Positions 1,347-59,031 of a stretch of 64,000 bases of DNA are shown here, in pieces. Each line of letters opens with the position of its first letter. Position 1 is the first letter of the stretch. The translations under genes and the position numbers were made by a program. Below the pieces are notes generated by a model that saw only the letters and a program-made list of their open reading frames with translations, did not search any database and was not told where the DNA came from. The DNA is from Escherichia coli (lineage in GTDB: Bacteria; Pseudomonadota; Gammaproteobacteria; Enterobacterales; Enterobacteriaceae), in NCBI RefSeq assembly GCF_001677475.2, contig NZ_CP015229.1; one strand, written 5' to 3'.

Positions 1347-2600
1347 GTGAGCCGTACTACAACTGTTGATGGCGCTCCGGCAAGCGACACTGACAAGCAA
1401 AGCATTTCTCAGCCAAATCAATTTATTAAACGCGGTACGCCGCAATTTATGCGCGTCACCCTGGCGCTGTTCTCTGCCGGACTGGCAACCTTTGCACTTC
1501 TCTATTGTGTGCAGCCTATCCTTCCGGTGCTTTCGCAGGAGTTTGGCTTAACGCCCGCGAACAGTAGTATTTCACTGTCCATTTCCACGGCGATGTTGGC
1601 TATCGGTTTGCTGTTTACTGGCCCGCTATCCGATGCCATTGGGCGCAAACCAGTGATGGTAACGGCGCTACTGTTGGCCTCCATTTGTACGTTACTTTCG
1701 ACAATGATGACCAGCTGGCACGGCATTTTGATTATGCGCGCCTTGATTGGGCTTTCGTTAAGTGGCGTGGCTGCTGTTGGCATGACTTATCTTAGCGAGG
1801 AAATCCACCCCAGTTTCGTGGCCTTTTCGATGGGGTTGTATATCAGCGGCAACTCAATTGGCGGCATGAGCGGACGCTTAATTAGTGGTGTCTTCACGGA
1901 CTTTTTCAACTGGCGAATTGCTCTGGCGGCAATCGGTTGTTTCGCGCTAGCCTCGGCGTTGATGTTCTGGAAAATCCTCCCGGAATCACGCCATTTTCGC
2001 CCGACTTCGCTGAGACCTAAGACGTTGTTTATCAACTTTCGTCTGCACTGGCGTGACCGGGGATTACCGTTATTGTTCGCAGAAGGCTTTTTGCTGATGG
2101 GGTCGTTCGTCACGCTGTTTAATTACATCGGCTATCGGTTGATGCTCTCCCCCTGGCATGTCAGTCAGGCCGTGGTTGGCTTATTATCGCTGGCCTATTT
2201 GACCGGTACATGGAGCTCACCCAAAGCCGGAACCATGACCACCCGCTATGGGCGCGGTCCAGTGATGTTGTTTTCGACGGGGGTTATGCTGTTTGGTTTA
2301 CTGATGACCTTATTTAGCTCGCTGTGGCTGATCTTTGCCGGAATGTTACTCTTCTCAGCCGGGTTCTTCGCAGCCCACTCAGTAGCCAGCAGCTGGATCG
2401 GCCCCCGCGCAAAACGCGCTAAAGGCCAGGCCTCCTCGCTGTATCTGTTCAGTTACTATCTGGGGTCGAGTATTGCCGGGACGCTGGGTGGTGTTTTCTG
2501 GCATAACTATGGCTGGAACGGCGTCGGCGCATTTATTGCTCTGATGCTGGTCATTGCTCTGCTGGTCGGGACGCGTTTGCATCGTCGTCTGCACGCCTGA
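1347..2600 (+). CDS. ynfM: MFS-family inner membrane transporter
   Basis: ORF track 417 aa, GTG start, multiple hydrophobic TM segments. Confidence 0.9.
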   Translation: MSRTTTVDGAPASDTDKQSISQPNQFIKRGTPQFMRVTLALFSAGLATFALLYCVQPILPVLSQEFGLTPANSSISLSISTAMLAIGLLFTGPLSDAIGRKPVMVTALLLASICTLLSTMMTSWHGILIMRALIGLSLSGVAAVGMTYLSEEIHPSFVAFSMGLYISGNSIGGMSGRLISGVFTDFFNWRIALAAIGCFALASALMFWKILPESRHFRPTSLRPKTLFINFRLHWRDRGLPLLFAEGFLLMGSFVTLFNYIGYRLMLSPWHVSQAVVGLLSLAYLTGTWSSPKAGTMTTRYGRGPVMLFSTGVMLFGLLMTLFSSLWLIFAGMLLFSAGFFAAHSVASSWIGPRAKRAKGQASSLYLFSYYLGSSIAGTLGGVFWHNYGWNGVGAFIALMLVIALLVGTRLHRRLHA

Positions 2601-2603
2601 AAA

Positions 2604-2641
2604 ATAAGTCCGGACTGCGGTAAATACCCATCCGGACTTAT
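2604..2641 (+). terminator. Perfect 11-bp inverted repeat (ATAAGTCCGGA / TCCGGACTTAT) just after ynfM stop; weak T-tract
   Basis: Read directly from sequence; only two T after stem so rho-independent function is uncertain. Confidence 0.35.
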
Positions 2642-2906
2642 TGCCTGCTCAAACCAACGTTAATAGCCATCCTAAAATAGACGAAGCGCCAGCCAATTCC
2701 CGCAGCGCATCTAGCGTCATCAGGATTATAAGTACCCAAATAAACGGATTCATTTTGCTGTGTGTCATTTATTACTGATGCGCAGTTATTCTACCGCTTT
2801 GTAAGTAGTAAAATAGTTAACCCGATCAAGACTACTATTATTGGTAGCTAAATTTCCCTTAAGTCACAATGCGTTATTATCAATGCTGTAATTTATTCAG
2901 CATTTG

Positions 2907-2920
2907 TACATATCGTTACA
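2907..2920 (+). promoter_or_regulatory. RstA box (TACATATCGTTACA, fits TACATNTNGTTACA) in asr promoter
   Basis: Exact match to the published RstA-box consensus ~100 bp upstream of asr start; asr is a known RstA/PhoB-dependent acid-induced gene. Confidence 0.6.
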
Positions 2921-3023
2921 CGCTGAAACCAACCACTCACGGAAGTCTGCCATTCCCAAAGATATAGTTATTTCAACGGCCCCGCAGTGGGGTTAAATGA
3001 AAAAACAAATTGAGGGTATGACA

Positions 3024-3332
3024 ATGAAAAAAGTATTAGCTCTGGTTGTTGCCGCTGCTATGGGTCTGTCTTCTGCCGCCTTTGCTGCAGAGACTGCGAC
3101 CACTCCTGCTCCGACTGCGACGACCACCAAAGCAGCGCCTGCGAAAACCACACATCATAAAAAACAGCATAAAGCAGCACCTGCCCAGAAAGCGCAGGCG
3201 GCTAAAAAGCATCATAAAAATGCGAAAGCTGAACAGAAAGCCCCTGAACAAAAAGCGCAGGCAGCGAAGAAACACGCCAGGAAACACAGCCATCAGCAAC
3301 CGACAAAACCTGCTGCACAACCCGCAGCGTAA
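3024..3332 (+). CDS. asr: Acid shock protein Asr (periplasmic, low-complexity Ala/Lys/His/Gln-rich)
   Basis: ORF track 2997..3332; likely true start is internal ATG giving [21 protein letters not shown] signal peptide, 102 aa. Confidence 0.85.
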
Positions 3333-3424
3333 GTTTTCAACAGTAATGCTGGCGCGCCCCCTCGCGCCTGAAAATTACGGTGCTAAGCGGGTAACGTTTA
3401 GCACCGCCTTTAGCGGAGGGTAGT

Positions 3425-3508
3425 ATGGTGGGCCGTTATCGCTTTGAGTTCATTCTTATCATCCTTATTTTATGCGCACTGATTGCCGCCCGTTTTTATC
3501 TTTCCTGA
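3425..3508 (+). CDS. ydgU: 27-aa small hydrophobic membrane protein (MVGRYRFEFILIILILCALIAARFYLS)
   Basis: Own translation; GGAGGG Shine-Dalgarno 5-10 nt upstream of ATG; matches known E. coli small protein YdgU; below ORF-track length cut-off. Confidence 0.7.
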   Translation: MVGRYRFEFILIILILCALIAARFYLS

Positions 3509-3607
3509 TCGTAGTTATCTGATTTTACTCCCACTTTCATCCCGTCCCGTCTATAGTATTTATGAGGGTTTGCTTTTAATAATCATAATTACCCACCAGA
3601 GTGTGAT

Positions 3608-4429
3608 ATGCGTACAACCATTGCTGTAGTGTTGGGTGCAATTAGTTTGACGTCTGCTTTTGTGTTTGCAGATAAACCAGACGTTGCCAAATCGGCAAAC
3701 GATGAGGTCAGCACCCTGTTTTTTGGTCATGATGATCGTGTGCCAGTGAATGACACGACCCAATCACCGTGGGATGCGGTTGGGCAACTGGAAACGGCCA
3801 GCGGCAATTTATGTACGGCGACGCTGATTGCACCCAATCTGGCATTAACAGCAGGACACTGTTTATTGACGCCGCCTAAGGGTAAAGCCGATAAAGCGGT
3901 GGCGCTGCGTTTTGTGTCAAATAAAGGTCTTTGGCGCTATGAGATCCACGACATAGAAGGCCGCGTTGATCCGACACTGGGAAAGCGGTTAAAAGCAGAT
4001 GGGGATGGTTGGATTGTTCCTCCCGCAGCTGCGCCGTGGGACTTCGGTTTGATTGTGCTACGTAATCCCCCTTCTGGCATTACACCGTTGCCGTTATTTG
4101 AGGGAGATAAAGCCGCGCTTACCGCCGCATTAAAATCGGCTGGTCGTAAAGTCACTCAGGCGGGATACCCAGAAGATCATCTCGATACGTTGTACAGTCA
4201 TCAAAACTGTGAAGTGACTGGCTGGGCGCAAACGTCGGTAATGTCACATCAGTGCGATACCTTGCCGGGTGACAGCGGTTCGCCTCTGATGTTGCATACC
4301 GATAACGGCTGGCAATTAATTGGGGTACAAAGTTCGGCTCCTGCTGCGAAAGATCGCTGGCGCGCCGATAATCGGGCCATTTCTGTTACCGGTTTTCGTG
4401 ACAAGCTGGATCAACTGTCACAAAAATAA
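3608..4429 (+). CDS. ydgD: Secreted trypsin-like serine peptidase (S1 family; TAGHC His motif, GDSGSP Ser motif)
   Basis: ORF track 273 aa with signal peptide and catalytic-triad motifs. Confidence 0.85.
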
Positions 4430-6619: not shown

Positions 6620-8011
<1,392 letters not shown>

Positions 8012-13678: not shown

Positions 13679-13806
13679 CTTTTTACCTTAACACTTCCAT
13701 AACAAGTCATCAGTAGAATACCTGATGAAACCTTGTTTAGAAACGATTGATAGTAAGTAAAAACAGCGGGGTGTATTGTGACGTTTTTATATCTACCGTG
13801 AATGTT

Positions 13807-14526
13807 ATGAACACTATCGTATTTGTGGAAGATGATGCGGAAGTCGGTTCACTGATTGCTGCGTACCTGGCAAAACATGATATGCAGGTTACCGTGGAAC
13901 CGCGCGGCGACCGGGCCGAAGAAACTATTTTGCGAGAAAATCCGGATTTGGTGTTACTCGACATCATGCTACCAGGCAAGGACGGCATGACCATTTGTCG
14001 TGATTTACGCGCAAAGTGGTCCGGACCGATTGTTCTTCTAACCTCTCTCGATAGCGATATGAACCACATCCTGGCACTGGAAATGGGTGCCTGCGACTAT
14101 ATTCTCAAAACGACGCCCCCTGCTGTTTTGCTAGCGCGTTTACGTTTGCATTTGCGTCAGAATGAGCAAGCCACACTGACCAAAGGTCTACAGGAAACGT
14201 CTCTGACTCCCTACAAAGCCCTGCATTTCGGCACATTGACCATCGATCCCATCAACCGCGTAGTCACCCTGGCTAACACTGAAATCTCGCTCTCGACAGC
14301 TGATTTCGAATTATTGTGGGAATTAGCTACCCATGCCGGGCAAATCATGGACCGCGATGCATTGCTGAAAAATTTACGCGGCGTCAGTTATGACGGACTG
14401 GATCGTAGCGTGGACGTGGCTATTTCGCGGTTAAGAAAAAAACTGCTCGATAACGCCGCAGAACCTTATCGCATTAAAACTGTGCGTAACAAAGGCTATC
14501 TATTTGCGCCTCATGCATGGGAATAA
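13807..14526 (+). CDS. rstA: Two-component response regulator RstA (OmpR family)
   Basis: ORF track 13747..14526; likely start at MNTIVFVEDD (239 aa); receiver and winged-helix domains. Confidence 0.9.
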   Translation: MNTIVFVEDDAEVGSLIAAYLAKHDMQVTVEPRGDRAEETILRENPDLVLLDIMLPGKDGMTICRDLRAKWSGPIVLLTSLDSDMNHILALEMGACDYILKTTPPAVLLARLRLHLRQNEQATLTKGLQETSLTPYKALHFGTLTIDPINRVVTLANTEISLSTADFELLWELATHAGQIMDRDALLKNLRGVSYDGLDRSVDVAISRLRKKLLDNAAEPYRIKTVRNKGYLFAPHAWE

Positions 14527-14529
14527 GCG

Positions 14530-15831
14530 ATGAAAAAATTGTTTATCCAGTTTTACCTGTTATTGTTTGTCTGCTTCCTTGTGATGTCTCTGCTGGTTGG
14601 GCTGGTGTACAAATTTACCGCCGAACGCGCGGGCAAACAGTCGCTGGATGATTTGATGAACAGTTCGCTGTATCTGATGCGCAGCGAATTGCGTGAGATC
14701 CCCCCACACGACTGGGGTAAGACGCTGAAAGAGATGGATTTAAATCTCTCTTTCGATCTGCGTGTCGAGCCACTGAGTAAATACCATCTTGATGATATTT
14801 CCATGCACCGACTGCGTGGCGGCGAAATTGTCGCCCTGGACGATCAGTACACGTTTTTGCAACGTATCCCGCGCAGCCACTACGTGCTGGCAGTTGGTCC
14901 TGTTCCTTATCTTTATTATCTCCATCAGATGCGATTGCTGGATATCGCCCTGATCGCTTTTATTGCTATTTCCCTCGCCTTTCCGGTGTTTATCTGGATG
15001 CGTCCGCACTGGCAGGATATGTTAAAACTGGAAGCAGCGGCGCAACGATTTGGCGATGGGCATCTCAATGAACGTATCCACTTTGATGAGGGTTCGAGCT
15101 TTGAACGACTTGGTATCGCATTTAACCAGATGGCCGACAATATCAACGCCTTGATTGCCAGCAAAAAACAGCTTATTGACGGTATCGCTCACGAACTGCG
15201 AACACCGTTAGTGCGCCTGCGTTATCGACTGGAGATGAGCGATAACCTGAGCGCCGCCGAATCCCAGGCGTTGAATCGCGATATCAGTCAACTTGAAGCT
15301 TTAATTGAAGAGCTGCTGACTTATGCCCGACTCGATCGCCCACAAAACGAGCTTCATCTTAGCGAACCAGACCTGCCGTTGTGGCTGTCAACGCATCTGG
15401 CAGACATTCAGGCAGTAACACCCGATAAAACGGTACGGATTAAAACGCTCGCGCAAGGCCATTATGCGGCGTTGGATATGCGCTTAATGGAGCGCGTGCT
15501 GGATAATTTGCTCAATAACGCCCTGCGCTACTGTCATTCAACGGTTGAAACCAGCCTGCTACTGTCGGGGAATAGAGCGACATTAATTGTTGAGGATGAT
15601 GGCCCAGGGATTGCCCCAGAAAACCGCGAACATATCTTTGAACCTTTTGTTCGCCTCGATCCCAGCCGGGATCGCTCAACCGGCGGCTGCGGGCTGGGGT
15701 TGGCAATTGTCCACTCTATAGCACTAGCAATGGGCGGTACGGTTAATTGTGACACCAGCGAACTGGGTGGTGCCCGCTTCTCGTTTAGCTGGCCGTTATG
15801 GCATAACATCCCGCAATTTACCTCTGCTTGA
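14530..15831 (+). CDS. rstB: Sensor histidine kinase RstB
   Basis: ORF track 433 aa; H-box IAHELRTPL, HATPase motifs. Confidence 0.9.
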   Translation: MKKLFIQFYLLLFVCFLVMSLLVGLVYKFTAERAGKQSLDDLMNSSLYLMRSELREIPPHDWGKTLKEMDLNLSFDLRVEPLSKYHLDDISMHRLRGGEIVALDDQYTFLQRIPRSHYVLAVGPVPYLYYLHQMRLLDIALIAFIAISLAFPVFIWMRPHWQDMLKLEAAAQRFGDGHLNERIHFDEGSSFERLGIAFNQMADNINALIASKKQLIDGIAHELRTPLVRLRYRLEMSDNLSAAESQALNRDISQLEALIEELLTYARLDRPQNELHLSEPDLPLWLSTHLADIQAVTPDKTVRIKTLAQGHYAALDMRLMERVLDNLLNNALRYCHSTVETSLLLSGNRATLIVEDDGPGIAPENREHIFEPFVRLDPSRDRSTGGCGLGLAIVHSIALAMGGTVNCDTSELGGARFSFSWPLWHNIPQFTSA

Positions 15832-15872
15832 CACTACGCGCACGGTGGTCAAGTCACCACCACTGTGCTATA

Positions 15873-18236
<2,364 letters not shown>

Positions 18237-18366: not shown

Positions 18367-18384
18367 TGAACTGCACCCCAAAAG

Positions 18385-18939
18385 TTGGACACTCAACGAA
18401 GTAAGGTGCAGTTTTTTATGAGTAAATATTCTCTCAGCTTTAAGCTTGAGGTTGTGCAGCACTATCTTTCCGGCATGGAAGGGCAGAAAGCGACTGCAAA
18501 GCGTTTTGGTATCGATCACAGTGCCGTTCGTAAGTGGACTGCTGCCTGGAAGCTTCATGGCGAAGCCGGACTTACCACCCGGCATTTCGCCTATTCTCCC
18601 GTCTTTAAAGAGTCCGTTATCCTGCATATGCGTGAGCACCGGTTGTCTGTTCGCGAAGTCTGTGCAAAATTCACTATTCCGGCTTTCTCCACGGTCCTTC
18701 TGTGGGAACGCCTGTATGATGAAGGGGGATTAGAAGCCCTCACTGACAGCCGACGCGGGAGAAAAACGATGCCAGAACGCCCTGAAAATAACCCGGCACC
18801 TTCTTTACAGGCTCCTCTTAACCATGATGAACGAGAGGAACTTGAACAACTGCGTGTTGAAGTGGCTTATCTAAAAAAGTTGCAGGCCTTGCTCAGGGAA
18901 AAAAGCACGTCAAAACGCGGGATAAAACGCAGATCGTGA
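18385..18939 (+). CDS. IS3-family transposase OrfA (HTH DNA-binding, leucine-zipper C-terminus)
   Basis: ORF track 184 aa; resembles IS150-group OrfA architecture; contains in-frame A_AAA_AAG slippery heptamer. Confidence 0.85.
   Translation: MDTQRSKVQFFMSKYSLSFKLEVVQHYLSGMEGQKATAKRFGIDHSAVRKWTAAWKLHGEAGLTTRHFAYSPVFKESVILHMREHRLSVREVCAKFTIPAFSTVLLWERLYDEGGLEALTDSRRGRKTMPERPENNPAPSLQAPLNHDEREELEQLRVEVAYLKKLQALLREKSTSKRGIKRRS
18873..18879 (+). promoter_or_regulatory. Programmed -1 ribosomal frameshift slippery heptamer A_AAA_AAG
   Basis: In orfA frame codons CTA AAA AAG; -1 frame is open from here into orfB (checked codon by codon to 18936). Confidence 0.7.
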
Positions 18940-19775
18940 ATGAGTTAAGGCCGGACTTCCCTCTTGCGCGCTTGTTAAAAGCGGCAGGGCTGGCGAGAAG
19001 TACGTTCTACTGGCAACTGGCGAGCGGTAAAAAACCAGACAAATATGCCGATGATAAGCGGCAGATTTTAACGCTGTTCCATAAACATAAAGGACGGTAT
19101 GGATACAGGCGAATCACGCTGGCTATCCGCCGGGAAGGAAGCTTACTGAACCATAAAAAGGTTCAGAGGTTAATGAAGGCGTTAGATTTAACCTGCTGTA
19201 TCAGAAGGAAGAAATACAACTCTTACAGAGGCCGGTATGGGAAAGTGGCGGGTAATGTGCTGAACCGGCAGTTCAGTGCGGATAAGCCCAACCAGAAGTG
19301 GGTAACAGATGTCACGGAATTTAAAATCAGCGGAGAAAAACTGTATCTGTCCCCCGTTCTGGATCTGTATAACGGAGAAATAGTTGCGTATCAGATGGCG
19401 TCCCGTCCTCTTCTGTCGATGGTGGATGACATGCTGTTGAAGGCTGTATCTGTACTGGGTAAAGACGAATACCCGCTGCTCCACTCAGATCAGGGCTGGC
19501 AATATCAGATGGCGCATTATCAGAACCGGCTTAAGGAGGCTGGTCTGAAACAGAGCATGTCAAGGAAGGGGAACTGTCATGACAATGCGGTGATGGAAAG
19601 CTTCTTCGGCACGCTGAAATCTGAGTGTTTTTACCTGATGGAACACAAGAATATCAGCGAGTTGCGCATGGCTATCGATAATTACATCCACTATTACAAC
19701 CATGAAAGAATAAAACAGAAACTGAAAGGCCTGAGTCCGGTAGAGTACCGAACCCAGGCCCTGATAGCCGCTTAA
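18936..19775 (+). CDS. IS3-family transposase OrfB (DDE catalytic domain), probably expressed as OrfAB fusion
   Basis: ORF track 279 aa; motifs HSDQGWQYQ and NCHDNAVMESFFGTLKSE typical of IS3-family integrase core. Confidence 0.85.
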   Translation: MNELRPDFPLARLLKAAGLARSTFYWQLASGKKPDKYADDKRQILTLFHKHKGRYGYRRITLAIRREGSLLNHKKVQRLMKALDLTCCIRRKKYNSYRGRYGKVAGNVLNRQFSADKPNQKWVTDVTEFKISGEKLYLSPVLDLYNGEIVAYQMASRPLLSMVDDMLLKAVSVLGKDEYPLLHSDQGWQYQMAHYQNRLKEAGLKQSMSRKGNCHDNAVMESFFGTLKSECFYLMEHKNISELRMAIDNYIHYYNHERIKQKLKGLSPVEYRTQALIAA

Positions 19776-19807
19776 TATAAACCGTCCAACATTATGGGGT
19801 CAGTTCA

Positions 19808-24453: not shown

Positions 24454-24466
24454 TTCACAGCCAAAA

Positions 24467-24497
24467 CGCCGGAGATTTTTCTCTCCGGCGTTATTTC
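24467..24497. terminator. Bidirectional terminator hairpin (CGCCGGAGA-TTTTTC-TCTCCGGCG) between convergent ydgA and uidC
   Basis: Stem-loop with T-runs on both strands. Confidence 0.6.
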
Positions 24498-58835: not shown

Positions 58836-59031
58836 TTCGCCCTCCTCAGATAAGTTTTACTCTAAATAATTCGAGTTGCAGGAAGGCGACGAGTGAATGA
58901 ATCCCCTGGAGCTTACTAAAGTAAGTGACTGGGGTGAGTGAACGTGGTCGCAGCACATGCAACTTGAAGTATGACGAGTGTATTACCACTATTGAAGCTC
59001 TTAATACCCAAAGTAGCAACTTTGCTTGCAC

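Follow-up and report, generated by a model that had tools for sequence, protein, structure and literature searches.

The 64-kb stretch of Escherichia coli DNA analysed here (the window) carries, in front of the acid-shock gene asr, a 14-bp sequence at 2907-2920 that was read in an earlier note as an exact box for the response regulator RstA. The locus raises the question of whether this sequence is the operator through which RstA acts on asr, how much of the surrounding promoter is conserved together with it, and whether the presence of rstA-rstB in the same window bears on its function.

The RstA box upstream of asr

The 14-mer TACATATCGTTACA on the + strand fits all 12 specified bases of the RstA box consensus TACATNTNGTTACA, as the earlier note had claimed. 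It is the sole exact match to this consensus on both strands of the 64-kb window, and 100 shuffles that preserved dinucleotides averaged 0.01 matches; the scan for additional exact matches that had been proposed earlier returned no other on either strand. When up to two mismatches were allowed, five matches were found in the window against 3.67 expected, placing the other four at chance level. These four sites (33610, 39748, 44062, and 53828, with two mismatches each) were rejected as additional RstA boxes. The relaxed pattern TACA-N6-TACA occurs three times in the window (0.99 expected), with the further two matches located at 7978 (- strand) and 45342.

The box is composed of two direct TACA half-sites (2907-2910 and 2917-2920) separated by 10 bp centre to centre, that is, by one helical turn, an arrangement that suits a head-to-tail dimer. 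Its start lies 117 bp from the asr ATG at 3024 and its end 103 bp ahead of this ATG, in line with the earlier estimate of about 100 bp. To number the promoter, the transcription start was placed by mapping published coordinates (box end at -55, PhoB box at -39 to -22, and a 9-bp spacer), all three of which fit 2975. Relative to this inferred start, the box spans -68 to -55 and is centred at -61.5. The coordinates of the promoter elements and genes are listed in Table 1.

Ogasawara, in 2007, reportedly built the consensus from a handful of sites, the asr box among them. The exactness of the match is therefore partly by construction, and the independent evidence for the box is its phylogenetic footprint. 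An inverted repeat (TTCAGCG...CGCTGAA) flanks the box in K-12 and could suggest another binding protein. It was treated as a chance occurrence, because its left arm is broken in the window (A at 2902) and the repeat is not conserved in other genera.

Table 1. Position of promoter elements and genes of the asr operon and rstAB in the window.
Feature	Position	Strand	Description
Conserved activator block	2904..2944	+	-71 to -31; TTGTACAwnnnGTTACACGCyGAwACCAAyCACTCACGGAA
RstA box	2907..2920	+	Exact and unique consensus match; half-sites invariant in 31 aligned promoters; reported in the literature
Published "PhoB box"	2936..2953	+	-39 to -22; CTCACGGAAGT CTGCCAT; position per PMC9026648, mapped via the -10 hexamer
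Spacer before the -10 hexamer	2954..2962	+	TCCCAAAGA here versus TCCCAGGGA in K-12
-10 hexamer TATAGT	2963..2968	+	TAnnnT exactly 42 bp after the box in 30/30 promoters
Transcription start, inferred	2975	+	A in an invariant CA, 7 nt downstream of the -10 hexamer
5'-UTR hairpin GGCCCC-GCAGU-GGGGUU	2978..2994	+	+4 to +20; MFE fold with 6-bp stem and 5-nt loop
asr	3024..3332	+	Periplasmic acid-shock protein, 102 aa; NCBIfam equivalog acid_shock_Asr, 99 bits versus cutoff 50
ydgU/samT	3425..3508	+	Membrane peptide, 27 aa; NCBIfam small_YdgU, 70 bits versus cutoff 24
PhoP-box-like direct repeat TGTTTA-gaaac-GATTGA	13734..13750	+	Upstream of rstA; identical in K-12
rstA	13807..14526	+	OmpR/PhoB-family response regulator; NCBIfam equivalog, 485 versus 330 bits
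rstB	14530..15831	+	Sensor histidine kinase; NCBIfam equivalog, 833 versus 478 bits

The asr operon and the rstAB genes

The ORF list contains an alternative in-frame ATG for asr at 2997. The start at 3024 is the one annotated in K-12, and both this ATG and the GAGG preceding it are invariant among the 31 aligned promoters. Divergent from asr, a 39-codon ORF (MTHSKMNPFIWVLIILMTLDALRELAGASSILGWLLTLV) is present at 2649-2768 on the - strand. It belongs to the NCBIfam KPN_01571 family (63 bits versus a cutoff of 35) and is absent from the K-12 RefSeq annotation.

The coordinates 13807..15831 given earlier for rstA-rstB are right, and both ORFs are intact and score far above the equivalog cutoffs. 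The only difference between RstA and its K-12 counterpart is Q36R in the receiver domain, so the DNA-binding domain is identical to that of K-12. RstB differs from the K-12 protein by V196I and V308A. The PhoP box has the consensus (T/G)GTTTA-N5-(T/G)GTTTA, and on this basis we take the direct repeat at 13734-13750 to be PhoP-box-like. Judged by its sequence, this repeat is the presumed entry point of a relay from PhoQP to RstBA, which fits the published relay with rstA under PhoP control (PMC4117788, PMC13425233).

Conservation of the box among asr promoters

A single scan of species-representative genomes with the Asr protein retrieved 29 loci, giving 30 promoters together with the window. 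The sampled genomes belong to Escherichia (including E. albertii), Citrobacter, Siccibacter, Enterobacter, Superficieibacter, Entomohabitans, Pseudocitrobacter, Rahnella, Serratia, Cedecea, Pluralibacter, Shimwellia, and Rouxiella, along with several MAGs, and represent at least 12 named genera. All loci carry TACA-N6-TACA at -116 to -122 from the ATG, with 10-12 of the 12 consensus positions matching. In 30/30 asr promoters, from at least 12 named genera, this repeat is placed exactly 42 bp upstream of a TAnnnT hexamer.

In the 31-sequence alignment, each of the eight TACA positions carries 2 bits of information, compared with values below 0.5 bit upstream of -72 and, for most positions from -30 to -13, below 1 bit. 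The half-sites are invariant, and the central spacer and the flanks beyond -72 vary, a pattern indicative of purifying selection on the box. Position 7 of the box, a T in the consensus, is C in 18/31 and T in 7/31 sequences, and the box consensus derived from the phylogeny is TACAwnnnGTTACA. Since this T is not conserved across genera, the term "exact consensus" is partly an E. coli-centred description. Where paralogous asr copies are found at unlinked loci, as in Rahnella and Enterobacter sp. Ag1, the box is kept at both copies.

Within E. coli, K-12 and 5406 of the 5416 matching complete genomes, O157:H7 strains among them, share the 42-bp sequence of 2903-2944 without a difference, and it occurs at one place per genome. 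The K-12 asr RstA box (Ogasawara et al. 2007, J Bacteriol 189:4791, per PMC4117788 and PMC9026648) thus corresponds to the one described here in the 14-mer itself, in the 42 bp around it, and in its distance to the -10 hexamer and to the ATG. For the Klebsiella pneumoniae asr box, which belongs to the same promoter family, a structure with the RstA DNA-binding domain is available (PDB 4NHJ), showing a tandem direct repeat with two domains bound (PMC4117788). The K. pneumoniae box is an imperfect repeat (TACA/TACT; PMC4117788), whereas the window and the 29 other loci sampled have the canonical TACA/TACA.

A 41-bp conserved block containing the box

The RstA box lies within a longer conserved block with sharp borders. 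Information jumps from <0.5 bit to 2 bits at 2904 and drops again after 2944, and no indels were found in 2904-2944 across the 31 aligned sequences. After the RstA box, the block contains wACC (2927-2930) as a third phased repeat, then TCAC (2937-2940), and the -35 region. In 18/31 aligned sequences the third repeat reads TACC, and that of E. coli is AACC; the TCAC lies one turn downstream of it. Downstream of the box, 2921-2944 (-54 to -31; CGCyGAwACCAAyCACTCACGGAA) is nearly invariant in at least 12 named genera, with a more uniform conservation than the box-internal spacer, and falls outside the published RstA footprint (-77 to -55). Beyond the block, conservation falls at -30 to -13 and returns at the -10 hexamer, the start-site CA, and the hairpin at +4 to +20.

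From this conservation pattern we tentatively suggest that the RstA box could be the distal third of an indel-free 41-bp activator module. The remainder might consist of low-affinity RstA sites, forming an OmpR-like "galloping" array that reaches the -35 region, or might act as a docking surface for RNA polymerase, and the Pho box might be an Escherichia-specific overlay on this older module. A reading of the block as an RstA array or an RNA polymerase dock is in keeping with the finding that RstA and sigma70 holoenzyme suffice in vitro, which also argues against an obligatory, unknown second factor. A canonical second RstA box in the downstream part was considered and found unsupported: the fourth repeat TCAC fits TACA poorly, and the third (TACC/AACC) is plausible.

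The OmpR arrays of ompF and ompC (F1-F3 and C1-C3) offer a parallel for such an arrangement. Like these arrays, the asr promoter has half-sites phased at 10 bp and of graded quality, with the strong site distal and the series running towards the -35 region, and the 41-bp block has the length of two 20-bp OmpR-type dimer sites. The corresponding pattern at asr would be TACA / TACA / wACC / TCAC with 10-bp phasing, of which the fourth repeat is a poor match to TACA. Unlike at ompF and ompC, only the distal 14 bp at asr are documented as bound by RstA, and occupation of the proximal part is hypothetical, being proposed by analogy.

Core promoter elements and the 5'-UTR

The position that the RstA box takes within the promoter of asr, 42 bp upstream of TATAGT, agrees with the published -77 to -55, given the inferred start. 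The -35 region reads CGGAAG and has no sigma70 -35 consensus. A scan of 2550-3650 with the sigma70 consensus found no promoter-like site, a result that fits activator dependence and is uninformative by itself.

Three substitutions relative to K-12 lie close to the box. Position 2902, just outside the conserved block on its upstream side, has A where K-12 has G, and positions 2959-2960 (-16/-15), within the spacer leading to the -10 hexamer, have AA where K-12 has GG. This AA pair was found in 0 of 5422 complete E. coli genomes, the best being four genomes with one of the two changes. Randomising the 9-bp spacer alters both the strength and the pH response of the asr promoter, Pasr (PMC9026648). 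In view of these published effects and of the private change in the spacer, asr expression in this strain may differ.

The hairpin predicted at the beginning of the 5'-UTR is invariant at 13 of its 17 positions, and three more positions are conserved in 29-30 of 31 sequences. An Rfam search of 2600-3650, including the hairpin, matched no family. In a 61-nt window, the fold was no better than that of shuffled sequence (z = -0.23), and covariation was absent because the hairpin is almost invariant. With the fold not above shuffles and with no covariation, it is the conservation that argues for a real RNA element. Such an element may act as a 5' stabiliser of the abundant "acid shock RNA".

RstA as the activator of Pasr

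Several lines of published evidence place RstA at this promoter. Genomic SELEX in E. coli yielded the RstA box consensus; RstA occupies the tandem TACA sites as a dimer, and a crystal structure contains two RstA DNA-binding domains on a tandem repeat (PMC4117788). In Pasr, the RstA box, or reported RstA footprint, was assigned to -77 to -55 and the PhoB box to -39 to -22, and earlier mutagenesis of the RstA box left variants at 1.6-40% of wild-type strength (PMC9026648). In EMSA with AIEC LF82, binding of RstA was lost when the box was deleted or scrambled (PMC11135836). The observation named earlier as one that would refute the RstA interpretation, a mutated box without effect, had therefore already been sought in the literature, with an outcome in favour of the interpretation (PMC11135836). 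RstA also shifts the asr promoter of EHEC O157 in EMSA (PMC6824119) and binds the asr promoter in DRaCALA, and purified RstA together with sigma70 holoenzyme activates an asr template from -104 to +50 in vitro (PMC13425233). Induction of Pasr-mSc at pH 5 needs RstBA (PMC13425233). A 129-bp fragment constitutes the complete wild-type acid-responsive promoter (PMC9026648, Table S6); it begins at window position 2896, 11 bp upstream of the RstA box. These binding data come from E. coli with the identical sequence, and by analogy the box is expected to be bound by RstA in this strain as well.

Taken with the sequence, uniqueness, and conservation reported here, the published binding, mutagenesis, and in vitro activation support the RstA interpretation of the earlier note. 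The sequence at 2907-2920 is almost certainly a high-affinity RstA operator in the promoter of the asr-ydgU (samT) operon, which depends on sigma70 and on an activator, and none of the evidence speaks against this reading. The identification is correct but already known, from the literature, where the RstA box was first defined at Pasr, and from standard regulon databases.

The operon structure has been described previously: ydgU/samT (27 codons) and asr form an operon, SamT binds RstB and exerts negative feedback, and the feedback by Asr is positive (PMC13425233). In the proposed mechanism, mild acid, together with low Mg2+ through PhoQP-driven rstAB transcription, would lead to more active RstA. 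An RstA dimer would then bind head to tail on the two TACA half-sites, centred at approximately -61.5, and would activate a promoter that has a good -10 hexamer (TATAGT) and is without a -35 element; we infer that RstA contacts RNA polymerase. The operon products would feed back on this circuit, with the SamT peptide inhibiting RstB and Asr acting positively. The asr gene reportedly also needs PhoBR, and RstA is thus not the sole input (PMC9026648).

Other explanations for the box

The RstA operator has to be weighed against other activators that could act through this region. The core of the Pho box is CTGTCAT; the box is made up of two direct repeats of 11 bp that stop about 10 bp upstream of the -10 hexamer. 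In the published PhoB box, which reads CTCACGG aagt CTGCCAT, the second half matches this core at 6/7 positions and the first at 3/7, and the E. albertii sequence is CTGTCAT exactly. The first half belongs to the universally conserved block. Positions 2946-2956 carry no more than 0.93 bit each, most of them <0.4, and the second half CTGCCAT (2947-2953) is conserved in Escherichia sequences only. PhoB could be the main activator, in which case acid induction would use the Pho-box-like repeat (-39 to -22) and leave the TACA repeat an accessory role, and asr transcription is reportedly controlled by phoBR, the PhoB box overlapping the -35 region (PMC9026648, PMC13425233). We consider this unlikely, since conservation of the second Pho half-site is confined to Escherichia and that of the RstA box is invariant throughout the comparison, since RstA alone with sigma70 holoenzyme activates Pasr in vitro and the response at pH 5 depends on RstBA (PMC13425233), and since low-phosphate induction has been attributed to PhoRB and mild-acid induction to RstBA (PMC9026648). 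The PhoB and RstA inputs at asr are not mutually exclusive, and the restricted distribution of the half-site suggests that PhoB control of asr is a lineage-specific addition. Half-sites of OmpR, a paralogue of RstA, have the form GTTACA and GAAAC; these resemble the three phased repeats, with GTTACAcgctGAAACC at 2915-2930 as the matching sequence, and the box could be shared with, or chiefly used by, OmpR. RstA and OmpR act on csgD through one DNA motif, and both activators require a single site in the omrB promoter (PMC13425233). A leading role of OmpR at asr is nonetheless distinctly unlikely: no OmpR action at asr is reported in the literature examined, the asr control in vitro was run with RstA only, and acid induction is lost in rstA and rstAB mutants despite the presence of ompR (PMC13425233).

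It is very improbable that the box serves the divergent small gene of the KPN_01571 family (39 aa, 2768-2649, - strand) instead of or besides asr. The box lies 139 bp upstream of the start of this ORF, an NCBIfam NF033695 match with annotation in many E. coli genomes, but conservation ends sharply at -71, on the side facing the small gene. Moreover, asr has a different upstream neighbour in other genera (M32 peptidase, ABC transporter, or ygfA), and the box is still found there at its fixed spacing to the asr -10 hexamer. That the match is a functionless chance occurrence is hardly conceivable. By arithmetic, a motif with 12 specified bases is expected ~0.5 times per 4.6-Mb genome, but only 0.01 matches are expected in the window, the repeat is at the same position in 30/30 homologous promoters with variable flanks, and binding and mutagenesis have been published. 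The conservation data refute this reading.

Compared with Pho box promoters such as pstS, the asr promoter is controlled by a regulator of the same family, has direct repeats spaced by approximately one helical turn, and has no -35 element, and its Pho-like repeat abuts the -10 region. It differs in that the RstA box is centred at -61.5, in a class-I-like position, instead of replacing the -35 element, and in that the second Pho-like repeat is Escherichia-specific.

Linkage of asr and rstAB

The earlier note had further emphasised that the regulator and its target are physically linked. The coordinates are true, with 10.9 kb between the box and the start of rstA, but little functional weight can be given to this distance. 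Here as in K-12, asr and rstA are separated by ten unrelated genes, some in each orientation. In Serratia plymuthica, rstA-rstB (equivalogs; L033 5034-10291) end 2.8 kb upstream of asr with two genes between. No regulator/kinase pair was found within 10 kb of asr at five other copies (Pluralibacter, Siccibacter, both Rahnella, and Cedecea), and the RstA boxes are kept at these unlinked asr copies. Proximity of rstAB is therefore not needed for retention of the box or for the regulatory connection. The asr-rstAB neighbourhood is probably old, with the regional synteny having been rearranged repeatedly.

The two genes that separate rstAB and asr in S. plymuthica encode an M32 carboxypeptidase and an alpha/beta hydrolase. 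In Pluralibacter and Siccibacter, too, the gene next to asr on its upstream side encodes an M32 peptidase. As it adjoins asr in all three, the M32 peptidase is probably an ancestral asr neighbour that was lost by Escherichia.

Chromosomal context and other differences from K-12

The window is collinear with the ynfL-lhr region of E. coli K-12 (1,668,353-1,730,961), with an identity of ~98.3%. Gene order is the same from ynfL to tus and, indels aside, on to lhr. The best matches among 5426 complete E. coli genomes show 98.6-99.1% identity. An artificially mutated window was considered and rejected, as third codon positions account for 206 of the 243 coding differences from K-12 and no internal stops are present.

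Several differences were observed elsewhere in the window. A 1.44-kb insertion relative to K-12 is located at 18367-19807 between fumC and fumA, corresponding to an IS3-like element of the ISEcB1 family according to the annotation of matching genomes. At the junction, the two alignment pieces share 4 bp of K-12 sequence. E. coli 19SZHZ869Rt and 23CRST009 match the query over its full length, both flanks included, at 99.7-99.8%, which would fit a shared insertion site. TerB, upstream of tus (15871-15897), shows two differences from K-12 (AATTAAGGATGTTGTAACTAAAGT versus AATAAGTATGTTGTAACTAAAGT) with the GTTGTAACTAA core kept, and we take it to have a G beside the locking position, as in TerC. 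Near ydhL/nemR, a 120-bp insertion relative to K-12 (58861-58980) presumably resembles an ERIC/IRU repeat (…GTAAGTGACTGGGGTGAGTGAAC…GCAACTTGAAGTATGACGAGT). At 24464-24492, ~150 bp of K-12 sequence (1,691,400-1,691,551, ydgA-uidC) are missing, and the 29-bp overlap at the junction suggests repeat-mediated variation.

Implications

What remains new in this analysis lies outside the earlier note: the 41-bp module, the Pho half-site with its lineage-specific distribution, and the invariant 5' hairpin. Pasr is a widely used synthetic acid-responsive promoter, and RstBA aids virulence in EHEC, AIEC, UPEC, and APEC. The comparative result, comprising the fixed spacing between the box and the -10 hexamer, the 41-bp module, and the lineage-specific Pho half-site, may be of modest practical use for promoter engineering, and may guide which bases to mutate when the RstA and PhoB inputs are to be separated.
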